This document shows, piece by piece, positions 17,051 to 44,138 of a stretch of DNA of 64,000 bases. Position 1 is the first letter of the stretch, and each line of letters starts with the position of its first letter. The stretch spans positions 103,089 through 167,088 of the forward strand of contig CAWGZR010000012.1 of NCBI GenBank assembly GCA_963827165.1, written 5' to 3'. The notes beneath the pieces were generated by a model. It searched no databases. It saw only the letters and a list, made by a program, of their open reading frames with translations, and had not been told where the DNA came from. The DNA comes from Candidatus Bathyarchaeota archaeon. GTDB lineage: Archaea > Thermoproteota > Bathyarchaeia > Bathyarchaeales > Bathycorpusculaceae. The position numbers and the translations under genes were made by a program.

Positions 17051-17533
17051 GTGAGAAATTTGGGTACAAAACCCAAAAAAACTCCGAAGAAAATGTTGGA
17101 CTCCGTCGATGATCAAATTATACGCGCATTGGAAGACGATTCCCGTCTGAGCCTACGCAAGTTAGCACAAAGAGTCGGTTTAACCCCAAACATTCTGCAC
17201 AAACACCTTGAAACGCTCGAGCATGACGGCATAATCCTTGGATATGTGCCCGTAGTTGACTCAGCAAAAATGGGTTTAGCTCTCACAGCCATAATCATGA
17301 TCCAGATCGAGGGAGGACACATCCGAGAAGTAGAAGAAGAAATAGCAAAAGAAACCAATGTCTCCTCCGTATACGACATAACAGGGGAGTACGACGCCGT
17401 CGTTTTCGCCAAGTTCCAAGACAACCCAAGCCTCAACGCTTTTCTAAAAAAACTCCTCGGCGACCGATTCATAAAAAGAACAACAACCCTTGTTGCACTC
17501 AACGCCGTTAAAGAATGCAGCAAAGTGATTTAG
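17051..17533 (+). CDS. Lrp/AsnC family transcriptional regulator (full length, HTH + RAM domain)
   Basis: LDSVDDQIIRALEDDSRLSLRKLAQRVGLT; YDITGEYD. Confidence 0.92.
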   Translation: MRNLGTKPKKTPKKMLDSVDDQIIRALEDDSRLSLRKLAQRVGLTPNILHKHLETLEHDGIILGYVPVVDSAKMGLALTAIIMIQIEGGHIREVEEEIAKETNVSSVYDITGEYDAVVFAKFQDNPSLNAFLKKLLGDRFIKRTTTLVALNAVKECSKVI

Positions 17534-21814: not shown

Positions 21815-21853
21815 ATATAAACTTGGTTAAGATTTGTTCATAATAATTATGAA
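21815..21853 (-). promoter_or_regulatory. Island operator + TATA (copy 2, drives leader and APC permease)
   Basis: Minus strand TTCATAA-TTA-TTATGAA-CAAATCTTAACCAAG-TTTATAT. Confidence 0.85.
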
Positions 21854-22158: not shown

Positions 22159-22254
22159 TCACTTGATTTTTAGCTGTAACCGAATTTGGTAGCCAATCGT
22201 CGCTATTGACCCCATTATGACACATGTCCAGACTACATCCACTAATCCAAACAT
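22159..22254 (-). CDS. 31-aa single-TM microprotein, MFG family copy A
   Basis: MFGLVDVVWTCVIMGSIATIGYQIRLQLKIK; RBS GGTGG; homologous to copies at 22670, 28770 and 44034. Confidence 0.8.
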   Translation of the reverse strand: MFGLVDVVWTCVIMGSIATIGYQIRLQLKIK

Positions 22255-22306
22255 TTTTCCACCAGATTCCAATTTTATTGAACGATTTCTAAGGAGAAAG
22301 CATCCT

Positions 22307-22345
22307 ATATAAACGTAATTGTGAACCGTTCATAACTTTTATGAA
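22307..22345 (-). promoter_or_regulatory. Island operator + TATA (copy 3)
   Basis: Minus strand TTCATAA-AAG-TTATGAA-CGGTTCACAATTACG-TTTATAT. Confidence 0.85.
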
Positions 22346-22588
22346 AAATAAAAAAGCTGTGCAATTGGAGAGAATGAAATTAGACGTTTGGCTGTGTAAT
22401 TTCTATTTGCTTGGACACTTGGTCCGGTCCAATTCGTTCTCGGTTCGGGCACTTCAATTTTCATCCTCAAAACCCGAAGTGGCCACCTCTCATAAAATAA
22501 ATGTGCTTTTTAGTTGTATCAAACAAGCTCACGCCAATTATTTATTTCACACGAATTTTCTTTTGTCATTTTGACGCTTGTCGATGTT

Positions 22589-22627
22589 TTATGAAATGTT
22601 ATGAACAAATCACAACTTTATTTATAT
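22589..22627 (+). promoter_or_regulatory. Island operator (direct-repeat form) + TATA (copy 4)
   Basis: TTATGAA-ATG-TTATGAA-CAAATCACAACTTTA-TTTATAT. Confidence 0.85.
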
Positions 22628-22669
22628 TTAGCTGAGCAGATAACTAACTTACGTAAAAACGGTGAAAAT

Positions 22670-22768
22670 ATGTTTGGACTATTAGATTTAGCTTCAATCG
22701 GTTTAATCTTTGCTTCATTCGCTATTATAATGTACAACATCAGATTAGAGCTCAAAATCAAAGCATAA
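22670..22768 (+). CDS. 32-aa single-TM microprotein, MFG family copy B
   Basis: MFGLLDLASIGLIFASFAIIMYNIRLELKIKA; RBS GGTGA. Confidence 0.85.
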   Translation: MFGLLDLASIGLIFASFAIIMYNIRLELKIKA

Positions 22769-22805
22769 TACACGAAATATGTTTTGTGCACTTTAAATCA
22801 CAAAG

Positions 22806-23003
22806 ATGAGAAATATGGAATTCAAAAACATACACGAAGCATTGAAATATATTAATCACCGAGCGAAAGCCTATCCGAGTGAAATAGACTACTATTCATC
22901 GGAAGAATACAGAAAAGTTTATCCTGAACTTTGTCGCGTAAATCGCTTATTGCAAGCTGCTTATAATGTTCGTCATGAAAGTGGCAGCGTGCCCTTGCGC
23001 TAA
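22806..23003 (+). CDS. Small hypothetical protein
   Basis: 65-aa ORF directly after the microprotein, protein-like composition; no recognised family. Confidence 0.45.
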   Translation: MRNMEFKNIHEALKYINHRAKAYPSEIDYYSSEEYRKVYPELCRVNRLLQAAYNVRHESGSVPLR

Positions 23004-23293
23004 GATTCTAAAGCACATGTTTCTAGCCGACGGCTTTAAAGAGAAAGGAGAAATAGTAACATTAAATGCCATACTCTCACTACACTAATCTGGAAGAACC
23101 GATAAGCTGGAAAATGAAACGCATTTTCTCGAAAAGTTTTCTGAAGGACATAATATCAAGAAAAGGCAGCGCCAAGGAATGCGATAAAGCCGTCGCCTCA
23201 TTCGTCTTGATGTGCAAAGTCAACCGACCAAAAAATTACTTAAGGATTTAAGAGGATCGCGCATTAGACAATAGTTCGGTTGGCGGAGTATAT

Positions 23294-26074: not shown

Positions 26075-26229
26075 ACAAATGAACATAGCCCATGCAGTTT
26101 AAGCCAATTAGCGGTTGATTGGAGCTGAAGCAGCAACTCCTGTGTGAGACTCTGATGTGTTCGATCGCGCGGTCAAACTGAAAACAGATGTCCATGTTTT
26201 TGGCGTATTTTGTCATAAGTTTTTCATTT

Positions 26230-26268
26230 TTCATAAGTATTATGAACAAATCTCAATTACGTTTAAAA
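26230..26268 (+). promoter_or_regulatory. Island operator + TATA (copy 5)
   Basis: TTCATAA-GTA-TTATGAA-CAAATCTCAATTACG-TTTAAAA. Confidence 0.85.
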
Positions 26269-26306
26269 TTAAGTCATGGGCTGGCCATAGATTAAATGGT
26301 GAAAAA

Positions 26307-26432
26307 ATGTTTGAAGCAATCAAAATGACGTTTATCTCAGGTAATTTTGCTTTCAGATTTTCTCTACTTGAAATAAGACTCAACTCAAAAACAAAATATA
26401 CTAAAATAAATGGTGGCACAAAATGGACTTAA
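26307..26432 (+). CDS. 41-aa diverged MFG-family microprotein overlapping the synthase start
   Basis: GGTGAAAAA-ATG: MFEAIKMTFISGNFAFRFSLLEIRLNSKTKYTKINGGTKWT; shares MF...FA.F....IRL..K.K. Confidence 0.5.
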   Translation: MFEAIKMTFISGNFAFRFSLLEIRLNSKTKYTKINGGTKWT

Positions 26433-27655
26433 ACGACTTCTATTTTAAACTGCCACTGCAAACCGAGCCAATAATAGATGATACGACATTACGCGATGGC
26501 ATTCAAATGCCTGGCCTAGCAGTTGGGCCCAAAGAGTCCGCAAAAATAGCTCAACTCTTAGAAGAAATTGGTGTCGAAAGAATCGAATTATTCCACTATC
26601 AAGAACCCGACAAGAAAGCTGTTAAACTCATTTTGGATCTGAATCTTGACCTGCGTGTCGCGGGCTGGTGTCGAGCTTTAATGGAAGATATTGATAGCGC
26701 TGTAGCATGCGGGTTTAAGGAAATCGGAATTTCTCACCCTGTGTCTGATTTGCATTTTAAGGCGAAGTGGCCAAAGAAAAATAGAGCGCAAATCTTAGCT
26801 GACATGGTTGACGTTGTCGAGTATGCGGCTAAAACATGTGGCTTGCGAACGTTTGTTCACGGCGAAGACAGCACGAGGGCTGATTGGAACTTCGAGAAAG
26901 AATTTATAAATTCCGTAGCTGGCGCCGGAGCCGAATGTTACCGAATCTGTGATACTGTCGGTATTGGATTATCTGACCCAACTGCGTCCCTACCCAACGG
27001 AATACCTGCTAAAGTAGTGGCTATCAAGAAAGAAACAAAAATGGGTGCAATTGAAATCCATGCACATGACGATTTTGGAAATGCCGTTGAAAACACCATG
27101 GCGGCAATTAAGGCAGCTTCAGGAGTATGGGACAAAGTTTACGCCAGCACAACCTACCTTGGCATCGGCGAACGTGCAGGCAACGCAGAAACAGAAAAAG
27201 TCCTATTGAACTTATACTTGCATCACGGTGTCAAAAAATACGAGGGCAAAACACAGACATTAAAGCGAACCGCCGCGCATATCGGTAAAGCAACTGGCTA
27301 CGTTGTTCCGCCTAACAAGGCAATTGTCGGCGACTACGGTTTTGCGCATGAATCAGGAATTCATACGCATGGCGTTTTAAGTGATCCTTGGACTTACGAG
27401 CCATACCCTCCCGAATTAGTCGGAAACGAACGACTCTTAACAATTGGCAAGCAGTCGGGCAAAGGCATAATCAAACATAAAATAAACGAGTTAGCAGGTC
27501 ATGAACCAGACGACCAAACAGTAACTGTAGTGGTCGACAAAATAAAGGAGATTTATGCAAATGGCAGACGCGCATCGCTTAAAGAGGAAGAATTCAGAAC
27601 AATCCTTCGTATACTAAAAATTCAACCAGAAAATAACCACTTCGCATTTCTTTAA
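26423..27655 (+). CDS. LeuA/homocitrate synthase family (DRE-TIM) acetyl-CoA condensing enzyme
   Basis: DTTLRDG, CDTVG, HAHDDFG.A, GIGERAGNA, KAIVG..FAHESGIH; no C-terminal LeuA regulatory domain. Confidence 0.88.
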   Translation: MDLNDFYFKLPLQTEPIIDDTTLRDGIQMPGLAVGPKESAKIAQLLEEIGVERIELFHYQEPDKKAVKLILDLNLDLRVAGWCRALMEDIDSAVACGFKEIGISHPVSDLHFKAKWPKKNRAQILADMVDVVEYAAKTCGLRTFVHGEDSTRADWNFEKEFINSVAGAGAECYRICDTVGIGLSDPTASLPNGIPAKVVAIKKETKMGAIEIHAHDDFGNAVENTMAAIKAASGVWDKVYASTTYLGIGERAGNAETEKVLLNLYLHHGVKKYEGKTQTLKRTAAHIGKATGYVVPPNKAIVGDYGFAHESGIHTHGVLSDPWTYEPYPPELVGNERLLTIGKQSGKGIIKHKINELAGHEPDDQTVTVVVDKIKEIYANGRRASLKEEEFRTILRILKIQPENNHFAFL

Positions 27656-27724
27656 TTTTTTCTTGAATAAATGATAAAAAAAATTAGCCTCGATCAATAA
27701 TGCTCTAACCAGAAATAATTTAAA

Positions 27725-27773
27725 TTCATAATTATTCTTAACACGTGAGAACTTATCTCAAATCGCTTTATAT
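27725..27773 (+). promoter_or_regulatory. Island operator, three-heptamer form + TATA (copy 6)
   Basis: TTCATAA-TTA-TTCTTAA-CAC-GTGAGAA-CTTATCTCAAATCGC-TTTATAT. Confidence 0.65.
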
Positions 27774-27818
27774 TTTATTCGTGCTCTCCATTTTCAAGCA
27801 AATAAAAGAGCCTAAGGT

Positions 27819-28163
27819 GTGGGATTTCCAAATCAAACATACCCTTTAGCAATTAAAGCATTTGCGGCGAACAATAACAAAAAACAGGTTGAAAATGCAG
27901 TCACTAACGAAATGATGGCAAAAGCCCAAATTAAGTTCCCTCTACAAACGCCTTCATCAAAAGAGGAGTTTTATTATAGGCAGATATTTGACGGCTATTT
28001 CACATGTCCAAATGCCGCATTAACTGTTCCTGCAGGTCCAACAATTGCCCGCTCTACCCCAACAGCCTTTAGATGGAGCAAAGAATTTGCCAAAATGGCT
28101 GATCCATCAGGCAGATCTATCAAAGTTCACAAACGACCCTTAAATGGACGCAATGTGCAATAA
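27819..28163 (+). pseudogene. Duplicated C-terminal fragment of asnB
   Basis: ENAVTNEMM..KFPLQTPSSKEEFYYRQIFD..FRWSKEFAKMADPSGRS nearly matches the last ~90 aa of 36338..38014; catalytic domains are absent. Confidence 0.85.
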
Positions 28164-28368
28164 TCCAAATTCTCATTCCCACAATTCACAACTGAAATAA
28201 CTTTTCTTTCTTCGTATCAATTTTAATTAGACACTGTGAAAACTCTTCGCAACAGTATTTATTTCTGTTTTTTCTGGGTCATCCATTAATTTTAGTTTCT
28301 TTTTTCAGGTGTTTGTAAAAAAAAATAAAGTTTGAAAAGTTTTGTTCTCTAGGCGTTTGCTCTTAAAA

Positions 28369-28602
28369 CTACATCGGTGATAGTACGATGGATGTTTCTG
28401 TCCGGGTTACGTTTGGATCTTTTTCGATTATTTTGTAAACTACTTTGTTTATATCTTCGAGGCATGGCGCTTCTAATATTACGATGGCATCGTACCTGCC
28501 GAAGATAGCGTCGGCAACTAAGGTTTCTTTGACTTCTCTTAATCTTTTGACTACTTCTAATGATGTGCCTAGTTTTGTGCTTAAGAGTATATAGGCTTTC
28601 AT
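28369..28602 (-). CDS. Stand-alone Lrp/AsnC ligand-binding (RAM) domain protein
   Basis: MKAYILL...IFGRYDAIV...TETSIVL; no HTH; closely similar to 43627..43863. Confidence 0.85.
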   Translation of the reverse strand: MKAYILLSTKLGTSLEVVKRLREVKETLVADAIFGRYDAIVILEAPCLEDINKVVYKIIEKDPNVTRTETSIVLSPM

Positions 28603-28687
28603 TTTTGTTCCTCTGTGTTTTTCTTCTTGATTTATGGAGAATATACTTCTTTGACATATAAGTCTTGTTTAGACATCTGTTTAACTT

Positions 28688-28726
28688 TTATGAAAAGTTA
28701 TGAACAAATCACAACTTCATTTATAT
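28688..28726 (+). promoter_or_regulatory. Island operator (direct-repeat form) + TATA (copy 7)
   Basis: TTATGAA-AAG-TTATGAA-CAAATCACAACTTCA-TTTATAT. Confidence 0.85.
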
Positions 28727-28769
28727 TTGGCTGGGCGACTATCTAAGCAAGAACTAAAACGGTGAAAAT

Positions 28770-28868
28770 ATGTTTGGGATAATTGATTTGGCTTCAATAG
28801 CTTTAATCTTCGGTTCATTTGCCTTTGTAATGTACAATATCCGGGTAGAACTCAAAATCAAAGCATAA
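28770..28868 (+). CDS. 32-aa single-TM microprotein, MFG family copy C
   Basis: MFGIIDLASIALIFGSFAFVMYNIRVELKIKA; RBS GGTGA. Confidence 0.85.
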   Translation: MFGIIDLASIALIFGSFAFVMYNIRVELKIKA

Positions 28869-29044
28869 CACCAAAAATTAACTAGAGCAATAGAGCCTTA
28901 TCTTTGAATCTGAACACGCAAAATACCCAGAGTGCCTTTTTCCGGCTCATTAGACTGATGGCCAAGTTTCTCTAATTTTTGGGATGAGGTATCTAATTAG
29001 ATTCTTTTCTTCTATCTATCAATTAGTAAATATATGTCTAACTT

Positions 29045-29083
29045 TTCATAATATTTATGAACATATCTTAAATATATTTTAAT
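29045..29083 (+). promoter_or_regulatory. Island operator + TATA (copy 8)
   Basis: TTCATAA-TAT-TTATGAA-CATATCTTAAATATA-TTTTAAT. Confidence 0.8.
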
Positions 29084-29203
29084 TCTTGTATACATAATTT
29101 TTAATAAAATTCAAGTTGTTGAAAATATGAAAAAAGTCAATCCAAAAAAGAAGGAATTCATGAGAGAGGAAATTGTGTGCTTCAAACGTGTGTAGGTGAA
29201 AAA

Positions 29204-29302
29204 ATGAGGAAAACAGCCCGCATACCTTATGTTGCATTTTGCACAAGTGCGTTTTCGATAGCTTTTGCTTATTACGCAATAAAATATCGAAAGTTCACAT
29301 AG
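29204..29302 (+). CDS. 32-aa single-TM microprotein
   Basis: GGTGA RBS; MRKTARIPYVAFCTSAFSIAFAYYAIKYRKFT. Confidence 0.5.
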   Translation: MRKTARIPYVAFCTSAFSIAFAYYAIKYRKFT

Positions 29303-29393
29303 GAACCGTTACCAAGAAGTTCAGGGTTATGATCAAGTCAACTTGAGCTAAATTTCGCGGTACAAAAAATGGAAAAAGAGGTGATAATGAAAA

Positions 29394-29573
29394 ATGATTT
29401 CAAGAGATTGCGATGGATGTCCCATATTAAGGGAGTGTGCTAAACGTTACCAAAAAGCCTTCAAGGGTGACAAGGTCTATTGCCCGGATGGAACTGCGCA
29501 TTTAATTGATGATTCCTCCACCCCTCAAGGCGTGGATTCATGCCCTGTTTGTTTGGAACTGTTCCAAAAATAA
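29394..29573 (+). CDS. 59-aa Cys-rich putative metal-binding microprotein
   Basis: GAGGTGA RBS; MISRDCDGCPILRECAKRYQKAFKGDKVYCPDGTAHLIDDSSTPQGVDSCPVCLELFQK. Confidence 0.6.
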   Translation: MISRDCDGCPILRECAKRYQKAFKGDKVYCPDGTAHLIDDSSTPQGVDSCPVCLELFQK

Positions 29574-29847
29574 TTAAGCATCGAATATACTTCATATTGA
29601 AATTCAAATCAACTTGAACACAGCGTTAAATGCCTTTTAGCAAATTCATGCCCCACCAATTACTATATAGGTGCTTCAAGAAACTAAAGGATATACCATT
29701 TGGTATTTTTTTTCTAAGATTGTGTTGCGTTGAAATCGCAAACAAAAGTTAAAACCTTCTACCTCCAGTTTGCATGTTTCCTCTTCAGCGTTAACGAAGT
29801 TTGCTATGAATTCTCGCCATTGAAACTCACCTATGTCTCAGAAGCGC

Positions 29848-30345
29848 TTAGCTTTTTTCTTTAACTTCCTTTATGATAGCGTCTAACTCATTGGTGAATG
29901 AAACATCATACATTTTCTTGTTATCATCAAAAACATCTAAAAAGACATCATTGGTCGCCAGGTCTTTAACCCATTTGCTGTAATAATCGATCCAGTCCTT
30001 TTCAGGTACGCCAAACCAAACTCTTTCCAACAGTGCTAGAGTTGAACTGAAAAAGCTAAAGGCCTTTTTTTCGGCTTCACTATATTTGTCCCATTTTTTC
30101 GGTTTTCCGTTACCTCTGTAATATATTTCTAAGATTTCTGGGTGGTCAATTAACATGGATGAGGTGGCGGAGAAATCACTCATTAGTTTTTCATAAGTAT
30201 TGTATTTTGTTGCTTTTCGTTGGAGGTACACCTGAATTGCCACAACGACTAGGGAGATTACTATAGCAATGTCAGTCGCAAGAGTAACTGTCGCTTGTAC
30301 GTCAGAGGATATTAATGGCATCTCTTTAAAACCCCGAAGTCGCAT
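29848..30345 (-). CDS. Hypothetical protein with N-terminal TM helix
   Basis: 165-aa ORF, hydrophobic IAIVISLVVVAIQVYL followed by a helical domain. Confidence 0.7.
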   Translation of the reverse strand: MRLRGFKEMPLISSDVQATVTLATDIAIVISLVVVAIQVYLQRKATKYNTYEKLMSDFSATSSMLIDHPEILEIYYRGNGKPKKWDKYSEAEKKAFSFFSSTLALLERVWFGVPEKDWIDYYSKWVKDLATNDVFLDVFDDNKKMYDVSFTNELDAIIKEVKEKS

Positions 30346-30734
30346 TAAGGCTTTTTAACCTTTGATTTTATTTTAGTCATGTTTTGGCTTTTAACGAGTT
30401 GTGCGCTATTGGTACGTCAATGGTCTTCTTAATTTTGAGGTTTATAGCTTGTGCGCGAATTAGCTGGCCTTCTTGCATGCAGTGCACGTCTTGTAAGCGA
30501 TGCAATCCTCCGAGCAGGAGATGGCTGTTTTGGTTTGGCAATCCAAAATTATTGTACTAAGCCACCTTGCCAAATATTGCTCTTAGCGCTTGTTGCGCGC
30601 ATGAATTGCCATACCCCGTAAACATGATGGGTAAGGTAAACAAGCTTAAATACGCGAATAATGGGATTTCCAAATCCAACATGCCATATCATCCTATTTT
30701 TGTTTTGCTCTGAAACCAAATGTTAAGGATAAAG

Positions 30735-30783
30735 ATATAAAACGATTTGAGATATATTCAGAAATATTAAGAATAGTTATGAA
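30735..30783 (-). promoter_or_regulatory. Island operator, three-heptamer form + TATA (copy 9)
   Basis: Minus strand TTCATAA-CTA-TTCTTAA-TAT-TTCTGAA-TATATCTCAAATCGT-TTTATAT; parallels 27725. Confidence 0.65.
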
Positions 30784-31431
30784 CTAAAAGTTATTTCTCA
30801 CTCCTCTCATTACATGAGATTATCTTTTTATCAAATTTCATCACCAAGTTTTTTCGGTCAAGGCAGTATTGCTTAAAAAAGAGTTCACAGGTGATTTCAC
30901 CAAAGTCACCCAAACCACCTCCCCTCAACCACTTTTCCACGCTTTTATACGATGTCGGTTCGTTTTTCTCATAAAAAAGGGAGAACCCGAGGTGATATCA
31001 TCCATTGGGTCTTCGGTAAATCTCAACGACTGCAAACCGATCTTAATTCATGAAAAGATTGTTTAAGATTCGACTCACCAAGAACCCGCCCCGGTACTGT
31101 GGTAAAGCCAGGTAGAGTCACAGGCTCCCGTTATCCCAAGTTTTTTCACGTCGTTTCTCTCACTTTGTTATGTATCTATTTTGGATGTTCATTTTAGGCA
31201 ATCGCCCGAGAAGAGACGTCTTCTTTTGTCTATAGTGACACCCTAAACGCAGTAAAGGAATACGGCAAAATAATTTAGTCTTAAATAGAGGTTGTTTTTT
31301 CCGAATTGCTGCATTTCAGATTAGGGAAACAAGAACAAAGTAGTTAGCATAGGGTTAATAAATGGTGGTTGAGTATCGAAAATTTTTGTATGTCCATGAT
31401 TACAGATTATTTTTGTAAATTATTTCGGTTT

Positions 31432-31470
31432 TTCATAAAAGTTATGAACAAGTATTAACTATGTTTATAT
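31432..31470 (+). promoter_or_regulatory. Island operator + TATA (copy 10)
   Basis: TTCATAA-AAG-TTATGAA-CAAGTATTAACTATG-TTTATAT. Confidence 0.85.
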
Positions 31471-31514
31471 TTAATTGAACATATTAATTGATAAAAATTA
31501 AATTGGTGTTACTA

Positions 31515-31622
31515 TTGAAAAAAGTATCAAAAATTACGTGCAACATTGAAGAACTGATCATCCTAGACACTCGAGGACAACCGCACAGCATTTTCCAAAA
31601 AAGAGTCACGGGGGCAAAGTAG
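31515..31622 (+). CDS. 35-aa leader microprotein abutting the APC permease start
   Basis: TTG after GGTG: MKKVSKITCNIEELIILDTRGQPHSIFQKRVTGAK; its TAG is followed directly by the permease ATG; homolog at 19427. Confidence 0.7.
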   Translation: MKKVSKITCNIEELIILDTRGQPHSIFQKRVTGAK

Positions 31623-33134
31623 ATGGCCACTAACCAACAAAATGCATCCACAACTGAAATGAAGAAGACCTTAAGCCTCGGAGGACTAACTATCAACGCC
31701 ATGGCGTTAATTGCCCCAGGCGCATTTCTCTGGCTTACGTTCCAATTACAAGCAGCTCAAGTAGACCCCTCAGGAGTCTCAACAGCTCCAGACATATGGA
31801 CCGGTTTGGCCTTAGCATTATTATTGTCTTTCTTGACCGCCGCAGCCTATTCATTCCTATCCAATCGTTACCCAGATGCTGGTGCAGGCAGCTCATACTA
31901 CTTCGCCCAACGTGCTTTGCTTGACAGAGGCAGCAGCAACAAATCCGCTCGAAACGCAAAATTCATTGTAGGCTGGCTTTCGCACCTCTACTATTGGGTT
32001 TATCCAGGTGTCATGGTCGGAATGATGGGCTTCTTCGTAACATATATTCTTTCGACAGTGGGCATAGCTATATCCCCGATAACCGAAGTTGCAATCGTGG
32101 TTGCATTTGCTGTTCTCGTAGGTTTCATAGCTTTCCGAGGAATAAACGGCTCAACAAAAACAAACCTCCTGATCAACATAGCGCAAATCGGCATGCTTGT
32201 CGGCGTAACTGGTCTTGCATTAGCATATCGCTTCATAAACCCTGATCATCTAACGTACACCTTCTCAAACCCTGTTGGCCCTCTAATACCGAGCAGCGCA
32301 AGCCACATGCTCTTCCAGGCAACAATTGCAATACTTGTCCTAGTCGGCTTCGAATCCGTAACTGCATTTACTGGTGAAGCGAAAAACCCAAAAGATGTCC
32401 CAAAAGCCATTATCCTATCACTTGTCATTCAAGGCGCCTTCTGCTATTTGCTAGGGTTCTACGGTGTACAAGCATGGATGAACTCTCACTACAGCTTTGC
32501 AGCGGCAGCAGCTTCCAACGCTCCAATTGGTGACATGATAATTCAATCGGTTAACGGATTGTTCGGAGGCGGCGGCTTCATCGTTATGCTTGTCGTCGCT
32601 GCAATCGTTGCAACCGCAATACTTGGGACAACACTGTCGTGCATGAACACAGGTGTAAGAGTAACATATGCTATCAGCCGCGACACTGAGGTCCCAGAAC
32701 CACTCGGAAAACTCAACCCACGATACGGAACTCCCGCTATTGGCGTATGGGTAATGACCATCGTTACAGCTGGAATAGGTGCCTTTGGAGTCCTGTCTCT
32801 AACAAATCTCACTGCTATGACGTTGCTATCTAACTTCGGAACATTCCTACTGTACGGTGTAACTTGCATAATAGCAGTCTATGCTTTGGCACGAGAAAAA
32901 CGCTCAATCCTCACCAAATACATCATACCCATTGTAGGCTTTGGAGCAAACGTTGTCATGCTAATCACTGTAGTCTGGCTCGGTGTGATAGGTGGAGGCA
33001 GCACGCAAACAGCAGCACTAATGGCATTAATAATAACGGCAATCTGGATGGCAGCAGGAATCGGATACTTTGTACTGAACTCACGAAGTAAAGAATCAAG
33101 GATCCTACCCTTTCCCGGCGGCAAAGCGAAATAA
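31623..33134 (+). CDS. APC family amino acid permease
   Basis: About 12 TM; same motifs as 20041..21603. Confidence 0.92.
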   Translation: MATNQQNASTTEMKKTLSLGGLTINAMALIAPGAFLWLTFQLQAAQVDPSGVSTAPDIWTGLALALLLSFLTAAAYSFLSNRYPDAGAGSSYYFAQRALLDRGSSNKSARNAKFIVGWLSHLYYWVYPGVMVGMMGFFVTYILSTVGIAISPITEVAIVVAFAVLVGFIAFRGINGSTKTNLLINIAQIGMLVGVTGLALAYRFINPDHLTYTFSNPVGPLIPSSASHMLFQATIAILVLVGFESVTAFTGEAKNPKDVPKAIILSLVIQGAFCYLLGFYGVQAWMNSHYSFAAAAASNAPIGDMIIQSVNGLFGGGGFIVMLVVAAIVATAILGTTLSCMNTGVRVTYAISRDTEVPEPLGKLNPRYGTPAIGVWVMTIVTAGIGAFGVLSLTNLTAMTLLSNFGTFLLYGVTCIIAVYALAREKRSILTKYIIPIVGFGANVVMLITVVWLGVIGGGSTQTAALMALIITAIWMAAGIGYFVLNSRSKESRILPFPGGKAK

Positions 33135-33297
33135 AGATAAAGACAATGCATAAAAAAGCTAGTCCAATAAACAATTGGCTAGCCTCATTTCCAAAACATT
33201 TTTATTTGTTCCTTTAAGTTCATTTTGCTCTAACATCCATCTAACTAAGAGGTAAATAGACGAATAATCGTTCGATTAACCAAGGTTTGGTTAAGAT

Positions 33298-33610
33298 ATG
33301 TTTGCCTTATTCTTAATACCATTAATTTTTGGAGTTGCTGCCATATCGACTGCAGCATATATAATTCGCTGGATCTTAAAACATGATGCTGGCTCTGAAG
33401 AAATACAAAAGGTCGGCGGCTACATAATTAATGGAACCCGAACATACCTTAACATGCTAACAAAGACAGTCCTTCTTGTAACACCAATCTTCGCAGTTTT
33501 GATGTATTTTCTGTACCAAGATTGGAGAGTCTCAGTTGTTTTCTTTTTCGGCATAGTTCTCTCCTAAGAAGCAGGATACATCGGCATGAATGTTGCCGTA
33601 AGAACAAAAT
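33298..33610 (+). pseudogene. N-terminal fragment of a membrane-bound H+/Na+-translocating pyrophosphatase (hppA-like)
   Basis: DAGSEEIQKVGGYIINGTRTYL... then TAA at 33565, with in-frame continuation EAGYIGMNVAVRT (HppA motif AGYIGM..AVR.N); rest of gene absent. Confidence 0.75.
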
Positions 33611-33697
33611 GCGAGCACCACAAACATCAATCAAAGTTAGACGCTATTAAGTCAAACATCCAATTTTATAACTCTGGAGTTAACATATTTCCATATT

Positions 33698-33736
33698 ATC
33701 ATAAGTTTTATGAACAAATCTTAACTACGTTTAAAT
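33698..33736 (+). promoter_or_regulatory. Island operator + TATA (copy 11, glnA promoter)
   Basis: ATCATAA-GTT-TTATGAA-CAAATCTTAACTACG-TTTAAAT. Confidence 0.85.
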
Positions 33737-33790
33737 TTGTTCAAGGTTAGTTCTGGTAAACAAAGGTAATTAAATAAACGGTGAAATAAT

Positions 33791-35257: not shown

Positions 35258-35290
35258 GCAAGCTATAAGCCAAAAAGACAGGGACTAAAT

Positions 35291-36271: not shown

Positions 36272-36337
36272 AATTTCCTTTTCTTAAAATGTGTCTTAAA
36301 ATACATGTTTTTGGTTAACTCTTAGGTTCGTGAAAGT

Positions 36338-38014: not shown

Positions 38015-38121
38015 TTCAGTTGTTTTTGTTTTTCCATCTTAAAGCCCAACTAACTATAAGGTACAAGAATTTTAGTTGTGCTTCCAATTTTTCTGATTTT
38101 TCCTATAAAATAGTTCAGATT

Positions 38122-38160
38122 TTAATAAAAAGTGTGAACAAATCACAATCAACCTTATAT
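38122..38160 (+). promoter_or_regulatory. Island operator (degenerate) + TATA (copy 12)
   Basis: TTAATAA-AAA-GTGTGAA-CAAATCACAATCAAC-CTTATAT. Confidence 0.65.
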
Positions 38161-38388
38161 AATTGGGTTCATACCCTATGTAAAAAGGAGAAAAAGAAGG
38201 CTCTAAATGCAATACATAAAATCAGAAATCTCTGATTGTGTTAAAGAAGCGAGTTGTTTTTCAGCCTTCTTTATCAAACTAGGCGCAATCTTGAAAGAGG
38301 TTCCCTAGTCTCCGCTCGGAATCGATAATTATGTTAAACCTAAATTGTGTTTCTATGTGTTCTGTTGCGTTGTTGGAGGCGGCATAAA

Positions 38389-38676
38389 ATGAGCCGTTTC
38401 TTAGCATCCGTCAATATTTTCGCGGATTCAACCCAAATTGACGCGGTTCTCTTAGCGTTATCCAAACTTCAAAACATCGAGGAAGTCTACGAGGTTGCAG
38501 GAGAGTACGATATCGTGACTCTTGTTTCCACCTCAACCCTTGAAGAGTTTCGAGACATCCTGCAGAAGCAAATAATGAAAATTAAGGGTGTAAAAAGCAC
38601 TATAGTTACCGTTATACTGCATCCTTGCAAAGGTCCAAGGTGCCAAGAAAAAGCTAAAATTGTAACAACCATTTAG
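38389..38676 (+). CDS. Stand-alone Lrp/AsnC ligand-binding domain protein
   Basis: GGAGG RBS, ATG 38389; YEVAGEYDIV..EEFRDIL..IMKIKGVKST; no HTH. Confidence 0.85.
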   Translation: MSRFLASVNIFADSTQIDAVLLALSKLQNIEEVYEVAGEYDIVTLVSTSTLEEFRDILQKQIMKIKGVKSTIVTVILHPCKGPRCQEKAKIVTTI

Positions 38677-38728
38677 TTGGAGACAGGAGCAATAGTGAAT
38701 ACAGATGTCACTTGGAGTTTCGGATTAA

Positions 38729-40393
38729 TTGATCGATGCAGTTCAAGCGCTGACGGTTATTCTTATAATTGGAATAACCATACTTCTCGCGTGGCTAATA
38801 TCTCCATACATCACCGGAGTCTTTAAGAGAAAATCAAGCCGCTTAGACAAAATTTTCAACCCCATCGAGAATTTCATCTACAAAATCACAGGCGTAAACA
38901 CAGAGCAGGCGATGGGTTGGAAACAGTACTTCCTCTCAGGCTTGCTGCTAAACGCCGTCATGATGGTTATCGGCTTTTTAATAATGGTTTTTCAAGGCAA
39001 TTTACCGCTCAACCCAATGCATTTCCCCGGTGTACGCCCCGACTTAGCCTTCATGCAAGTAGTCTCGTTTACCACAAATACCGATCTACAGCACTATAGC
39101 GGCGAAGCGACCTTCTCGTACCTCAGTCAAACGGGGGTTTTGCAGTGGTTAATGTTTACATCTGCAATAACTGGGCTTTGCATGGGAATAGCCTTCATAC
39201 GCGGACTGATTGTCGACGCTAAAGACATGGGAAACTTCTACGTTGATTTCACTAGATCCATTACAAGAATTTTCCTGCCTCTTTCCATAATAGCTGCAAT
39301 TATTTTTCTCGCCTTGGGTGTACCTCAAACCTTCAATGGATACACCGCAGTAAAAACCGTGGAAGGTGCCGCACAAACATTGCTCGTGGGGCCAGTTGCT
39401 TCTCTTGATGCTATACTGCAAATAGGAACCAATGGAGGCGGATTCTATGGGGCGAACGCTGCCTATCCGTTCATGAATCCATCGCCGATTAGTAACATTG
39501 TGTTGATTTCTCTTATGCTCCTGCTTCCAACAGCATTAATTTTCGTTTTCGGCCAAATGATCGGCAAGAAAACCGAGTCAAGGCCGCTTCTTTGGGCTGC
39601 GTATATTCTCTTCGGAGTAAATTTGGCTATAGCATTTATTCCAGCGCTGCCTTTGGTGGCTCCAGGCATAGAAGTCCGATTTGGCGGATTCATGTCCAGT
39701 TTTTATACCGTTACAACGACTGTTGCCACAACCGGCTCTCTAAACTCGGCTTTGTTGGGAAATCATCCTCTGACGATTCTATCTGGGTTCCTTGGAATGT
39801 TTATCCAGTCAATTCCAGGCGGGAAAGGCGTTGGCATGATGTACATGGTTATGTTCATCATAATAACAGTCTTCATTGTCGGTCTCATGTCGGGTCGAAC
39901 ACCTGAATATTTGAACATGAAAATCACTGGACGCGATGTCAAACTCGTAATGATAGCGTTTCTTATCCACCCTATCATCATACTCGTACCTACTGTAGTC
40001 GCATATGCGGGTGGTTTTGCAAGTGCCGCAAATGTAAGCGGAAGCTCTGTTGGCTATACCCAAGTTCTGTGGGAATTCACCAGCGCCGCCGCAAACAACG
40101 GCTCAGACTTCTTAGGGTCCTCAGGGAACACGCCGTTCTTCAACATAGCAACCGCCATCGTGATGCTGATAGGACGCTTTGCGCCCATAGCCATATTGCT
40201 GGCGCTTTCAGGGTCAATGATCGGGCGAAAACGCGGCGGCACAACTTCAGGTCTAAAAACTGACACTTTGATATTCACCATAGTCTTGATTGTTGCCATT
40301 ATCATACTTGTGGTATTGACTTTCTTCCCGTTCCTTGCAATCGGACCAATATCATCATTCTTCAAAGGTTGGGTGAACGGATTTGGCCACTGA
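38729..40393 (+). CDS. kdpA: K+-transporting ATPase subunit A
   Basis: SFTTNTD.Q.YSGE, GNFYVD, GTNGGGF, GLMSGRTPEYL, SAAANNGS.F. Confidence 0.95.
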   Translation: MIDAVQALTVILIIGITILLAWLISPYITGVFKRKSSRLDKIFNPIENFIYKITGVNTEQAMGWKQYFLSGLLLNAVMMVIGFLIMVFQGNLPLNPMHFPGVRPDLAFMQVVSFTTNTDLQHYSGEATFSYLSQTGVLQWLMFTSAITGLCMGIAFIRGLIVDAKDMGNFYVDFTRSITRIFLPLSIIAAIIFLALGVPQTFNGYTAVKTVEGAAQTLLVGPVASLDAILQIGTNGGGFYGANAAYPFMNPSPISNIVLISLMLLLPTALIFVFGQMIGKKTESRPLLWAAYILFGVNLAIAFIPALPLVAPGIEVRFGGFMSSFYTVTTTVATTGSLNSALLGNHPLTILSGFLGMFIQSIPGGKGVGMMYMVMFIIITVFIVGLMSGRTPEYLNMKITGRDVKLVMIAFLIHPIIILVPTVVAYAGGFASAANVSGSSVGYTQVLWEFTSAAANNGSDFLGSSGNTPFFNIATAIVMLIGRFAPIAILLALSGSMIGRKRGGTTSGLKTDTLIFTIVLIVAIIILVVLTFFPFLAIGPISSFFKGWVNGFGH

Positions 40394-42563
40394 AAACACC
40401 GTTGAGTCAAAGAAGACGAAAGATTCCTCGCCCTCAGGAATGCGCTCGGCGCTCTCTGGGAAAGTATTAGTTGACTCTGTAGTTCGCCTCAATCCTAAAT
40501 CTTTGCTTAAGAATCCAGTGATGTTTATCGTTGAAGTTACATTCTATATTGTGGCAGCGATGGCTATAGTTCCCAAGGCATTCATACCGGTCGCTACCCC
40601 TCACCTGCAGATCTTCTACATTGAAGTGGCCGCCATACTTCTACTGACCGTCTGGTTTAGCACACTCTCCGATTCGCTTGCAGAGCAGCAGGCAAAAAGC
40701 ACCGCAGGCAGTCTCAGAAAACTGGAGACAGAAGTGCCCAGCAAAAAAATAGTCACTCAGGAATGGACTAGAAAAATTACCACAGTGAAATCAACTGATC
40801 TGCGAAAAGAAGACTTGGTCCTTATCGAAACCGGCGACGTAATTCCCTTAGATGCTGACGTTATCGAAGGGATCGCGATGGTTGATGAGTCGCTTGTCAC
40901 AGGTGAGTCAGCTCCCGTCAGGAAAGCGCCTGGCGATTCACTTATCGGAGGTTCAAGGGTTGTCAGCGACTCTTTGACTGCGAAAGTTACAACCAACCCT
41001 GGAGAAACCTTCATCGACCAAATGATAAAGATGGTTGAATCGTCTAAGCGGCCTAAGACACCAAATGAAGTTGCGATAACAACTGTTCTTATCGGTTTAA
41101 CCGCAATATTCAGCATAATCATAATTGCACTGCTCGGCACTTCAGTTACACTTAACCTTGGCGCCGACTTATCCGTGCTAATCGCGCTATACGTTTGTCT
41201 TCTGCCTACAACCATAGGCGCCTTGCTACCAGCCATCGGCCTCTCTGGCATAACCCGACTATACAAAAACAAAATCATCGCAAAATCCGGCAGAGCGATA
41301 GAAACCGCCGGAGACGCAGACGTTGTACTTTTAGATAAGACAGGCACTATTACCGTGGGGAACCGGCAGGCAATAGAGTTCATTGGGTTCGACGAATACA
41401 CAGAAGAAGATGTTGGGGAAGCTGCGTTTCTGTCCTCCTGGCATGATGATACCCCTGAAGGACGAAGTATACTGCGACTTGGCTACGAAAAAGGGTTCGT
41501 TCCAAAAGAGCTGAACTTGCTTGCAACCTCGGAAGTAGAGGCATTCTCGGCGGTCACCCGAACAAGTGGCGTCAAAATAACTCAAGTAGGTTTAACCTTG
41601 CCAAAAGGCGACAAGTCAGGAAGAGAGCGCATGCGTATCCGAAGAAAATCATCCGTGGCTGTTGGGGAAACCGCGGCTGACCTCGCGGAATCCGAAATTA
41701 ACATTGTTAAGGGCGCTCCTGAATCGATTAAGAGCTTGGCGACAATTGTTCCCAAGAACTATGATCTGGTGGTTGAGGGGATTTCTGCAGTTGGAGAAAC
41801 TCCCATAGCCGTCATGCGCAATGGAGTCGCCATAGGTATAATCAGGCTTAAAGATGTGCTTAAGGCAGGCATTAAAGAAAAGATTCAAGCGCTTAAAGTC
41901 ATGGGAATCCGGCCCGTCATGATTACTGGGGATCAGCCGCTTACCGCAAAAAGCATTGCCGCTGAGGTGGGAATCGACGAGTTTGTTGCACAAGCAAAAC
42001 CTGAAGACAAATACAAAATTGCTAAGAAAGAGCAAGCTGAAAACAGAATTGTGGCGATGATTGGGGACGGCACCAATGATGCACCAGCACTTTCCGCTGC
42101 TGACGTCGGGTTAGCAATGAACTCAGGCACTGAAGCAGCCAAGGAAGCCGCAAACATGGTGGATTTAGAGTCAAACCCCGCCAAAATAATCGATGTTGTC
42201 ATGTTAGGAAAACAGCTGTTAATGACAAGGGGCGCAGTTACGGCTTTCAGTATCGCTAACGACGTGTCAAAATACTTTGCGATCATGCCCGTCATCTTTG
42301 CAACCGCCATTCCCGCGCTAAGTAGTCTAAACATCTTACAATTGCACAGTATGCAAAGTGCTGTCCTGTCAGCTCTTATCTTCAACGCAATTGTCATTCC
42401 GCTCCTGATTCCTCTTGCTATGCGCGGTATCGCCTTCAAACCAACCACGACAATGGCGCTCTTTCTGAAAAACACCTTAATTTACGGGGTAGGCGGAGTA
42501 ATCGTGCCCTTCATCGGCATTAAACTAATCGACCTACTTCTTAGCGGAGTGTTTCATATCTAG
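40383..42563 (+). CDS. kdpB: K+-transporting ATPase subunit B
   Basis: KNPVMF, TGESAPV, KTPNE, LPTTIG, LDKTGT, GDGTNDAPAL, FSIANDVSKYF. Confidence 0.96.
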   Translation: MATENTVESKKTKDSSPSGMRSALSGKVLVDSVVRLNPKSLLKNPVMFIVEVTFYIVAAMAIVPKAFIPVATPHLQIFYIEVAAILLLTVWFSTLSDSLAEQQAKSTAGSLRKLETEVPSKKIVTQEWTRKITTVKSTDLRKEDLVLIETGDVIPLDADVIEGIAMVDESLVTGESAPVRKAPGDSLIGGSRVVSDSLTAKVTTNPGETFIDQMIKMVESSKRPKTPNEVAITTVLIGLTAIFSIIIIALLGTSVTLNLGADLSVLIALYVCLLPTTIGALLPAIGLSGITRLYKNKIIAKSGRAIETAGDADVVLLDKTGTITVGNRQAIEFIGFDEYTEEDVGEAAFLSSWHDDTPEGRSILRLGYEKGFVPKELNLLATSEVEAFSAVTRTSGVKITQVGLTLPKGDKSGRERMRIRRKSSVAVGETAADLAESEINIVKGAPESIKSLATIVPKNYDLVVEGISAVGETPIAVMRNGVAIGIIRLKDVLKAGIKEKIQALKVMGIRPVMITGDQPLTAKSIAAEVGIDEFVAQAKPEDKYKIAKKEQAENRIVAMIGDGTNDAPALSAADVGLAMNSGTEAAKEAANMVDLESNPAKIIDVVMLGKQLLMTRGAVTAFSIANDVSKYFAIMPVIFATAIPALSSLNILQLHSMQSAVLSALIFNAIVIPLLIPLAMRGIAFKPTTTMALFLKNTLIYGVGGVIVPFIGIKLIDLLLSGVFHI

Positions 42564-42575
42564 GAGAACACTGTA

Positions 42576-43061
42576 ATGACTGAAGAACAAAAAGAAAACT
42601 GGAAAAAATGGAACTTCAAACCAATTATAGGGTTAGCATTAGTTTCACTGCTGATTTGCGGGCTGCTATATCCCTTCTTCATCACAGGTATCGGCCAAGT
42701 TTTCTTCCCAAACCAAGCTAACGGCGATCTTGCCAAACTTCCTAATGGACAAGTCGTCGGGTCAACCCTTATAATGCAAAACTTCAACCTGACCATTTTC
42801 TTCCAAACAAGAAACGAAACCGCCGACCCATCCGCCTCAGGCGTAGACCCGGACATTACACTTCAGATGGCGTATTCGCAGGTGCCTGGAATCAGCAACG
42901 CTACAGGGATTCCTACGAGCGACTTAACTAACATCGTTAATCATAACCAACAGGGGACATTTTGGATTTTCGGCAGCCCATATGTTGATGTCTTGCAGCT
43001 TAACTTACAGCTCATTAAAGACTATCCCTCGATCTACAGTAATTTCACTTTGAACGGTTAA
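42576..43061 (+). CDS. kdpC: K+-transporting ATPase subunit C
   Basis: N-terminal TM, FP.QANG, GS.LI.Q.F, SASGVDPDI, V.VL.LN. Confidence 0.9.
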   Translation: MTEEQKENWKKWNFKPIIGLALVSLLICGLLYPFFITGIGQVFFPNQANGDLAKLPNGQVVGSTLIMQNFNLTIFFQTRNETADPSASGVDPDITLQMAYSQVPGISNATGIPTSDLTNIVNHNQQGTFWIFGSPYVDVLQLNLQLIKDYPSIYSNFTLNG

Positions 43062-43239
43062 GGCATGTGTTGGGCTCGGGTTGCTTGCTACAGGTATGTT
43101 GGCGGTAGCTTATTTTACATATGTCCAACTTCCAATTATAAAGCTGTGCAATTGTCACGCAAATAATGAAAGTATTATCTGCATGGCAAGAAAACTATAA
43201 ATATCCGTCACTCATGTTCAAGTAGACAAGACGACCCAT

Positions 43240-43524
43240 ATGCCAAAACTACTAGCATTCGTGGACATATTTGTAGAGTCTCCAGAAATGGACAGCGTAT
43301 TAGCAGCGCTTGCCCAATTAGACCATCTTGAAGAACTGTATGAAGTGACCGGGGAATTCGACATCGTTACATTGGTGTCATCCGAAGATATAGAAGAGTT
43401 CCGCGACGTTCTCAAGAACAAAATCATGAAAATAAAAGGCGTAAAAAGCACCGTAAGCTCGATCGTCCTTAAAGCCCACAAAGGACCAAAATGCATGGAC
43501 GATAACGTTCAAACGCCAACATGA
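43240..43524 (+). CDS. Stand-alone Lrp/AsnC ligand-binding domain protein
   Basis: YEVTGEFDIV..EEFRDVLKNKIMKIKGVKSTVSSIVL..HKGPKC; paralog of 38389 and 45525. Confidence 0.88.
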   Translation: MPKLLAFVDIFVESPEMDSVLAALAQLDHLEELYEVTGEFDIVTLVSSEDIEEFRDVLKNKIMKIKGVKSTVSSIVLKAHKGPKCMDDNVQTPT

Positions 43525-43626
43525 CCCAACCTTAAAACAGCTAAATTTTCTTTATGCCCCTTATTCTTGTTAACCCATTAATTTTATACTAAAAAAAGGA
43601 AAAATTGGGCTTTTGCCTTTGGGAGT

Positions 43627-43863
43627 TTACATGGGGTTGAGTACAATTGATGTTTCCGTTCGGATAACGTTAGGGTCTTTTTCAATTATTTTGTAAACAA
43701 CTTGATTGATTTCTTCAAGTGATGGTGCTTCCAATATTACGATCGCGTCGTATCGGCCGAATATGGCGTCTGCTGTGATTGTTTCTTTGACTTTTTCCTT
43801 AAACTTTTTGACTACTTCCAAAGATGTACCCGGTTTGGTACTTAGAAGAATGTATGCTTTCAT
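43627..43863 (-). CDS. Stand-alone Lrp/AsnC ligand-binding domain protein
   Basis: MKAYILLSTKPGTSLEVV...; closely similar to 28369..28602; start ATG 43863. Confidence 0.85.
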   Translation of the reverse strand: MKAYILLSTKPGTSLEVVKKFKEKVKETITADAIFGRYDAIVILEAPSLEEINQVVYKIIEKDPNVIRTETSIVLNPM

Positions 43864-43951
43864 TTTCTTTCCTTCTGTTTTTTGGGTTAAAGCATTAATG
43901 GTTAGCATTCCATATAAATTTTCCGTTCGATTTTAGACGTATGTTTAGTCT

Positions 43952-43990
43952 TTATGAAAAATTATGAACAAATCACAACCATATTTATAT
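43952..43990 (+). promoter_or_regulatory. Island operator (direct-repeat form) + TATA (copy 13)
   Basis: TTATGAA-AAA-TTATGAA-CAAATCACAACCATA-TTTATAT. Confidence 0.85.
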
Positions 43991-44033
43991 TATGCTGAGC
44001 AAGTAACTAATTATAAAATGGAACGGTGAAAAT

Positions 44034-44138
44034 ATGTTTGGAATAATCGATATAGCCTCAATAGCAGCAATATTTGCCTCATTTGCAGTAGTAGCGTATA
44101 ACATCAGGGTAGAACTCAAGAACAACCCCCTTAAATAA
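44034..44138 (+). CDS. 34-aa single-TM microprotein, MFG family copy D
   Basis: MFGIIDIASIAAIFASFAVVAYNIRVELKNNPLK; RBS GGTGA. Confidence 0.85.
   Translation: MFGIIDIASIAAIFASFAVVAYNIRVELKNNPLK

Follow-up and report, generated by a model that had tools for sequence, protein, structure and literature searches.

Predicted single-helix membrane microproteins behind a nitrogen-type operator in a Bathyarchaeia lineage, with the Kdp transporter as a tentative partner

The stretch of DNA analyzed here, referred to as the window, comprises 64,000 nucleotides (nt) from a Candidatus Bathyarchaeota archaeon. It holds four short genes, A to D, which encode hydrophobic peptides of 31-34 residues. Copy A (22159-22254, minus strand; 31 residues) carries the residues W9-T10-C11 that mark one subtype of the family, and it matches the family hidden Markov model (HMM) with an E-value of 4e-18. 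Copy B (22670-22768, plus strand; 32 residues) is the first cistron of a module whose second gene, orf65 (22815-23003, plus strand), begins 46 nt past the stop codon of B and encodes a conserved, soluble small protein of 62 residues. Copies C (28770-28868, plus strand; 32 residues) and D (44034-44138, plus strand; 34 residues) appear, like A, to be monocistronic, and D is convergent with tatC (44193-45131, minus strand). In a tblastn search of the whole 3.13-Mb genome, A-D matched only one another, reciprocally (E-values of 4e-4 to 3e-12), with the next match at an E-value of 0.70; all four genome copies thus fall inside the window. Copy D represents the commonest genomic context of the family, and the single-copy genomes examined share it.

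The initial annotation of this DNA had proposed a family of five. All five of its open reading frames (ORFs) translate exactly as given there, and A-D form one coding family, but the fifth, E (26307-26432, plus strand; 41 residues; promoter operator at 26240-26256), finds no support as a member. It scores 0.8 bits against the family HMM, and the grand average of hydropathy (GRAVY) of its best 19-residue window is 0.94, compared with 1.88 (copy A) to 2.25 in A-D. No homologue of E was found in the 119 other genomes of the genus. In a DNA alignment of the five loci, its likeness to A-D is limited to the promoter, the ribosome-binding site (RBS) and an ATGTTTG start, and its stop codon overlaps the start, at 26423, of a homocitrate-synthase-like gene. 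We therefore exclude E and treat it as a decayed copy or a leader ORF; the family in the window has four members.

Searches of the genus with a profile of the four copies, and then of 26 sequences, retrieved 83 full-length copies without internal stops, distributed over 47 of 120 genomes; 22 of these genomes have a single copy. For 52 distinct coding sequences, the pooled ratio of nonsynonymous to synonymous differences (pN/pS) in the proposed frame was 0.41, and the median ratio of the corresponding substitution rates (dN/dS) was 0.26. The same sequences gave a pN/pS of 1.06-1.23 in four control frames, while the codon-aligned antisense frame gave 0.49, as expected. Among 20 kdp-adjacent orthologues, pN/pS fell to 0.27, and nucleotide identity at codon positions 1, 2 and 3 was 0.80, 0.91 and 0.65. 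In these orthologues, identity drops to 0.30 in the 3' flank, just past the stop codon; the promoter and 5' region, at 0.84-0.91, is better conserved than the ORF itself. Pairs of the window paralogues A-D differ with a dS of 1.0-3.0 and a dN of 0.12-0.47, values by which these copies are old yet conserved. The suggestion that the copies differ mainly by synonymous or conservative changes, and that selection acts on the peptide, is thus upheld both by the paralogue pairs and by the contrast between frames. Homologous loci point the same way, with 83 intact copies to only two broken ones and a dN/dS well below 1. Of the broken copies, one is 5'-truncated (L032, G016:C6:564942-565007); the other, frameshifted, lies beside kdp gene fragments and a truncated neighbor gene, RAM2 (described below), in what is a decaying duplicate locus (L038, G028:C5). 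Contigs from a peat metatranscriptome, which cannot show small transcripts, included none over copy C or D; they did include identical or near-identical pieces of kdpB, of glnA and of the RAM gene at 43240-43524.

The predicted peptides are simple. In A-D, a window of 19 residues starting at residue 2 has a GRAVY of 1.9-2.25 and is followed by three basic residues. An AlphaFold2 model of copy D, built with 21 orthologues, consists of a single helix spanning residues 2-30, with a mean predicted local distance difference test (pLDDT) score of 90. In length, hydrophobicity and predicted fold, the peptides thus match a KdpF-type single helix of ~25-35 residues. Variation across 85 sequences is lowest at M1, D6, S9, I13, G/A15-S16, R25, E27 and K29. 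On a helical wheel, D6, S9, I13, S16, V20, I24 and E27 all fall between 60 and 140 degrees, and positions 14, 17, 19 and 21, on the opposite side, vary freely among hydrophobic residues. The conserved face probably serves as a surface for specific helix-helix packing. Membrane proteins generally obey the positive-inside rule, and because of this rule we favor a topology with the N-terminus outside and the C-terminus inside, which would place the basic R-x-E-L-K tail, some 8-10 residues long, in the cytoplasm. Judged by sequence, then, A-D are real genes; they encode a microprotein specific to this lineage, and we infer that it is translated and inserted into the membrane as a single-pass helix.

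The control regions of these genes are strongly stereotyped. At all five loci, E included, a 17-nt operator, TTATGAACAAATCACAA, is followed 5 nt on by a TATA element (TTTATA(T/A) at each copy), a poorly conserved spacer, the RBS GGTG(A/G)AAA and ATG. The promoters occupy 22306-22335 on the minus strand for A (operator 22319-22335, with three mismatches; TATA TTTATATA at 22306-22313) and, on the plus strand, 22599-22628 for B (operator 22599-22615; TATA 22621-22628), 28698-28727 for C (operator 28698-28714; TATA 28720-28727) and 43962-43991 for D (operator 43962-43978; TATA 43984-43991), the last three operators being exact. The ATG lies 49-58 nt past the start of the TATA element in the copies for which we counted this distance (A and B). 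Allowing up to three mismatches, the operator occurs at 10 sites in the window against 0.47 expected, a number reached in none of 100 shuffles. The operator-linked TATA and the GGTG(A/G) RBS, both reported by the initial annotation, are accordingly present at each copy. Every homologue examined has the operator, the TATA element, GCTG(G/A)GCAA-N-TAAC and then GGTGAAAAT-ATG. The GCTG(G/A)GCAA-N-TAAC element, between TATA and RBS, is specific to microprotein promoters. In addition, a conserved, imperfect palindrome-like sequence, TTAGAC-N4-GT(C/T)TA(A/G), lies at 43940-43956, between the TATA element of RAM2 and the microprotein operator, and occupies the same position at other copies.

It had also been proposed that each microprotein gene comes first in a transcript of its own. 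Each copy does have its own promoter, but a coupled downstream ORF exists only for B. Behind A, C and D there is a run of five to seven T residues 36-68 nt past the stop codon: A is followed by a palindrome and T7 about 40 nt past its stop and then by an operator promoter (21827-21843) serving an APC permease gene; C by T5 at 28937-28941 and then by another operator promoter (29055-29071); and D by T6 and then by the convergent tatC. Among family copies without orf65 behind them, 28 of 42 have a run of at least five T residues within 120 nt, versus 27% of random windows. The transcripts of A, C and D seem to hold a single gene each. Nor do these three lie in the leader of a structural gene, given that the T-run gives way to a further promoter (A and C) or to the convergent tatC (D); a leader position fits only E and, in a looser sense, B. 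ORFs of the orf65 type stand behind 11 of 54 family members, all of the B type, at distances of 27-48 nt. None of the 64 clusters of orf65 homologues carries a Pfam domain, and the names that sources assign to them are nearly all “hypothetical protein”, apart from one “asparagine synthetase A” and one “DUF2344 family”.

The operator is not confined to the microprotein genes. In the window it also precedes glnA (33708), the RAM-kdpABC genes (38132), the APC permease gene (21843) and the homocitrate-synthase-like gene (26240). On another contig (L098, G000 C4:126001-138000) it stands before a cluster of nifH, a radical-SAM gene, two genes for nitrogenase component 1 and a homocitrate synthase gene, a putative nitrogenase-like cluster; in the same region it also precedes genes for an Lrp-type regulator and a CobB/CobQ-like amidotransferase. 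Full-length Lrp genes occur both in the island that contains the microprotein genes and beside the nif-like cluster; in the window, an Lrp-type protein is encoded at 17051-17533. The operator sites probably define a regulon that responds to limitation for nitrogen or nutrients and is controlled by Lrp/RAM-type proteins, with glnA, asnB-like genes, amino-acid permeases, kdp and the nitrogenase-like cluster among its members. The exact operator pattern, TATGAACAAATCNNAA, is found in 85 of the 120 genomes of the genus (the reversed control gave four matches). The regulon must therefore predate the microprotein family and extend beyond it, and the co-occurrence of kdpA and microprotein described below is narrower than the regulon. 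In microprotein-free genomes, the operator pattern is often found in pairs ~1.7-1.8 kb apart.

Outside the genus, the family was found in a sister genus, with copies in 2 of 12 genomes. The other families of the class (297 genomes) returned three weak matches (E-values of 0.001-0.007), of which one contains a stop codon and one lies inside a 554-residue frame; we find none of these candidate homologues convincing. Of 31 related loci in public records, 30 are labelled as soil or peat metagenome-assembled genomes of Bathyarchaeota/Bathyarchaeia. One 6.5-kb contig titled Candidatus Acidoferrum (L060) shows the same kdpA...RAM-microprotein layout, and its name probably reflects a mistake made in binning or in labelling the public entry. 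The family accounts for 37 clusters among 1.84 billion cluster representatives, all with a common core of ~30-38 residues; the longer members (up to 69 residues) mostly begin at an upstream start, with translation running through the RBS.

The peptide had been presented as unannotated, and searches of family models and public protein collections gave no name for it. Neither Pfam-A, at its curated cut-offs, nor NCBIfam has a model that matches A-E; the sole Pfam matches, both for copy C, were Ost4 (14.8 bits, below the cut-off of 25; E-value of 0.026) and DUF3778 (E-value of 0.28). The family profile matched PDB sequences only at chance level (E-values of 0.49 or worse), with no KdpF chain among them. 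Look-alikes of copy D in the ESM Atlas (best score 0.82) belonged to no family and were uninformative. The exact sequence of copy D is present, unnamed, in public protein collections, from which A, B and C are absent; names given to the family there do not go beyond “hypothetical protein”. Gene callers thus overlook most copies, three of the four in this case. A search of the literature on Bathyarchaeia small proteins and archaeal KdpF returned nothing on the family, although a peptide family is not searchable by text. Our description of the family as new therefore relies mainly on the lack of a Pfam or NCBIfam model and of names. Single-helix microproteins attached to transporters are already known in bacteria and animals; what is new is the family itself, its archaeal lineage, the occurrence of several stand-alone gene copies behind a nitrogen-type operator and the pairing with a stand-alone RAM gene. 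The Bathyarchaeia are uncultured and globally abundant, and to our knowledge very little work has been done on small membrane proteins in archaea and none in this class.

The commonest neighbor of the family is the kdp locus, which in the window occupies 38132-43524 on the plus strand. It consists of the operator (38132-38148) and, by Pfam, a RAM gene (38347-38676), kdpA (38729-40393), kdpB (40383-42563), kdpC (42576-43061) and a second RAM gene (43240-43524), so that the operon is flanked by two stand-alone RAM genes. Next come RAM2 (43627-43863, minus strand; 78 residues) and then, on the plus strand, copy D, divergent from RAM2 across a shared control region of 170 nt. We read synteny in 54 loci with flanks and counted distances over all 83 copies of the genus. 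The commonest layout in these loci is that of copy D: RAM, kdpA, kdpB, kdpC, RAM, an opposite-strand RAM2 and the microprotein gene; the single-copy genomes examined show this kdpC-RAM-RAM2/microprotein arrangement. A kdpA gene lies within 8 kb of 54 of the 83 copies, and 41 of the 47 positive genomes have a copy near kdpA (at most 9.7 kb away). Across the genus, 45 genomes have both kdpA and the microprotein, two have the microprotein only (these assemblies are 85% and 69% complete), six have kdpA only and 67 have neither.

Placement near kdp takes more than one form. Thirty copies are near kdpA and have RAM2 within 400 nt; another 24 are near kdpA without an adjoining RAM2, most of them ~0.9-1.2 kb from kdpA. 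Copies of this latter kind are upstream of and divergent from the kdp operon at four loci (L033, L036, L084 and L014) and downstream of kdpC at a fifth (L040). They belong to the W-T-C subtype, that of copy A, and to a third subtype that starts M-I-A/G-I-M/L-D. Orthologues of the W-T-C subtype also precede an APC permease gene, in four of five loci. In the sister genus, one genome (G458) has a copy 1.1 kb from kdpA.

The kdp operons of this genus seem to have no KdpF. The KdpF model, PF09604, had no match at its cut-off in any of the 120 genomes and no weak match at the kdp locus, in agreement with the earlier remark that kdpABC here lacks kdpF. It also failed to match A-E at E-values up to 10, and matched nothing else in the whole genome. 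The gap between the first RAM gene and kdpA, 52 nt, has room only for an upstream ORF (uORF) of seven codons. That uORF, MSLGVSD (38705-38731), has its stop abutting the TTG start of kdpA, and the second kdp clade of the genus likewise has a start M-x-S-L-G-(F/V) ahead of its kdpA; the uORF may provide translational coupling to the weak start codon.

These facts raise the possibility, which we put forward tentatively and regard as somewhat short of probable, that the microprotein is an accessory or regulatory helix-packing subunit of transporters, Kdp first among them, with a KdpF-like role but no homology to KdpF. Each gene would be transcribed from its own operator promoter, most likely under nitrogen or nutrient limitation, and, because the promoters carry a common operator, the peptide would be made together with the genes of the regulon. 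The conserved helix face would then dock onto the membrane-embedded portion of a transporter. The Kdp potassium pump is the best first candidate because in two genera the microprotein gene recurs on one flank of the kdp operon or the other, because it co-occurs almost completely with one kdp clade and because no KdpF is detected. Duplicated copies could subsequently have been recruited beside an APC permease or joined to the soluble orf65. If the microprotein is a Kdp subunit, the role of KdpF has been filled independently in archaea, and the potassium pump shares its control with nitrogen assimilation and the nitrogenase-like cluster. A different role for the locus, with Kdp substituting for a missing ammonium transporter, is ruled out by the two amtB genes on the same contig.

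Passages of two reports describe KdpF as a 29-residue “lipid-like single spanner” that stabilizes KdpABC (PMC6255902, PMC12648545). Like KdpF, the microprotein is predicted to be a single transmembrane helix of ~30 residues, tied genetically to kdpABC and co-regulated with it, where no other KdpF is detected. Unlike KdpF, it has no match to that family in sequence, its gene is not a first cistron but sits behind an operator promoter of its own, either past kdpC-RAM-RAM2 or upstream in divergent orientation, and it is multi-copy, with paralogues away from kdp.

Several observations weigh against a Kdp subunit. The gene is outside the kdp operon, under its own promoter, and is either two RAM genes removed from kdpC or upstream and divergent. 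For 21 of the 83 copies, neither kdpA nor RAM2 is close by; one genome (G029) has kdpA on a different contig from the microprotein; and a sister-genus genome that is 92% complete (G352) has a RAM2-microprotein pair beside an APC permease gene but no kdpA. Of the six kdpA-only genomes, five belong to a second kdp clade, with KdpA 65-66% identical, laid out as RAM-RAM-kdpABC and with neither RAM2 nor the operator in the 9-17 kb of sequence covered. The remaining genome, G111, whose KdpA is 82% identical, also lacks the microprotein, and RAM2 and the operator are absent from the stretch covered there as well. Because the second-clade genomes and G111 do without it, Kdp in general does not need the microprotein. 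Co-occurrence among related genomes is not independent evidence. A-E have no sequence similarity to KdpF, and PF09604 also went undetected in 401 genomes of the phylum, so that its absence is not specific to this lineage. A predicted complex of KdpA with copy D scored 0.00 against a mark of 0.32; the prediction was made without controls and is evidence neither way on binding. The tie to Kdp is thus not obligatory, given G352, G029, the 21 unlinked copies and the second kdp clade, and these exceptions are the reason that we hold a Kdp subunit to be no more than a tentative reading.

The initial annotation had cast the peptides more broadly, as regulators or accessory subunits of the transporters of the island. 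The tie to kdp supports that idea; a role as first cistron does not hold for the three copies of the four that stand alone, and the specific link drawn between copy B and a type II P-type ATPase is not conserved. The ATPase gene follows B in the window and at two other loci, which makes three of 11 B-type modules; the others precede unrelated genes, such as those for ribosomal proteins S13 and S4. In muscle, sarcolipin and phospholamban are single-helix regulators of P-type ATPases. MgtS, MgtR and AcrZ are likewise treated, in a passage of one report, as single-helix peptides of ~30-50 residues that bind the membrane domain of a pump or transporter and alter its stability or activity (PMC12648545). 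The position of copy B recalls these systems, but adjacency to the ATPase is infrequent, the family is archaeal and belongs to a nitrogen-type regulon, and no homology is to be expected. Another parallel comes from Methanosarcina mazei, which has nitrogen-regulated small proteins that are soluble and unrelated in sequence to the family. They are described as acting on proteins of nitrogen-related transport or assimilation, one of them mediating the inhibition of AmtB (PMC10714827, PMC11456600). They share with the microproteins an archaeal origin and expression set by nitrogen supply, which the operator suggests for the present family; the microprotein differs in being a predicted membrane helix confined to one Bathyarchaeia family.

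An alternative partner is RAM2. Under this reading, the R-x-E-L-K tail would recruit or sequester RAM2 at the membrane, and in this way transporters, or the operator's Lrp-type regulator, would be linked to an amino-acid signal much as in GlnK-AmtB control. RAM2 lies within 400 nt of 38 of the 83 copies, always divergent, with 168-190 nt of common control region between the two genes. In eight cases the pair is away from kdp. One of these is copy C, whose neighbor (28369-28602, minus strand; 77 residues) is a stand-alone RAM/AsnC ligand-binding domain 81% identical to the RAM2 beside D; a longer ORF at 28349-28657 was considered for this gene and rejected as unrelated, the real gene being the 77-residue frame. 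Across species, RAM2 has a mean identity of 87%. Forty-five genomes have both RAM2 and the microprotein, two have the microprotein only and four RAM2 only, and the full-length Lrp genes noted above would supply a regulator on which such a pair could act. However, 45 of the 83 copies have no adjoining RAM2, and no microprotein lies within 400 nt of 19 of the 57 RAM2 genes. Divergent pairing is also what one expects of a regulator gene and its target and does not imply binding, and the cytoplasmic tail is predicted to be very short. We consider a RAM2 partnership unlikely; if it were correct, it would represent a new coupling of metabolite sensing to the membrane.

Also unlikely, in our estimation, is that the microprotein belongs to the nitrogen regulon but acts on a partner outside its neighborhood, either another membrane complex or the bilayer, so that adjacency to kdp marks only its ancestral birthplace. 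The genes have their own promoters, the 21 copies apart from kdpA and RAM2 are in unrelated contexts, and the B-type modules lie beside ribosomal and other unrelated genes. A second, unrelated family of membrane peptides of 32-37 residues, F2, suggests that the regulon contains several small membrane proteins. The F2 member in the window (29204-29302, plus strand; ending ...YYAIKYRKFT) has the operator promoter at 29055-29071, followed by a 22-codon ORF (29128-29196) upstream of F2 itself. F2 often comes directly after a copy of the first family (L034, L077, L069), and it also occurs at G000 C5:54112-54372. Against a partner elsewhere stands the repeated adjacency to kdp, at either end of the operon and in two genera, which is hard to explain by ancestry alone when the paralogues differ with a dS above 1.

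A more ambitious combination of the Kdp and RAM2 ideas strikes us as improbable. Here the peptide would be a lineage-specific plug-in helix that has replaced KdpF and whose paralogues dock on Kdp, the APC permease or the P-type ATPase; with the divergent RAM protein it would make up an amino-acid sensor, tethered to the membrane, by which transporters are gated post-translationally when nitrogen is limiting. By analogy, such a device would achieve control logic like that of PII and AmtB with a 32-residue helix and a 78-residue RAM domain.

The type I toxins TisB, Hok, Ibs and Ldr are short hydrophobic peptides that are often encoded in several copies at stand-alone loci, and the microproteins share these traits. 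The peptide might thus be an autonomous, membrane-active one, either toxin-like or an oligomeric cation pore lined by D6, S9 and S16, which lowers the membrane potential or conducts ions when nitrogen is exhausted. The polar stripe on one face of the helix would suit a pore. Yet the weakly conserved 3' flank holds no conserved antitoxin-RNA sequence, and Rfam has no match in 19000-46000, although an unconserved antisense RNA would escape both observations. Unlike the toxins, the microprotein also shows stable synteny with kdp across many species and has the promoter of a metabolic regulon, and nearly half of the positive genomes carry it as a single copy. We view an autonomous peptide as very improbable.

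That the peptide is functionless and the conserved unit is instead a promoter/leader module, a small RNA or a leader regulating a downstream gene would fit the superior conservation of the promoter and 5' region and the example of E, which shows that the module can act as a leader ORF before a structural gene, but it is hardly credible given frame-specific selection with the third codon position most variable, a maintained length with no stops in 83 copies, conservation that tracks one helical face and the lack of anything to regulate downstream of A, C and D.

The family thus offers defined handles for study: purifying selection, a mapped helix face, a defined promoter and operator, and recurrent neighbors in kdpABC, the stand-alone RAM gene and the APC permease. 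Some related populations have a shorter version of the island. Soil DNA contigs from two runs in two studies join 26280 to 33776, skipping 7495 nt, with 24 other letters in between. These populations consequently lack the segment that holds E, the homocitrate-synthase-like gene, copy C, F2 and one APC permease gene. Because both ends of the segment lie at operator promoters, this arrangement suggests recombination between the repeated promoters.

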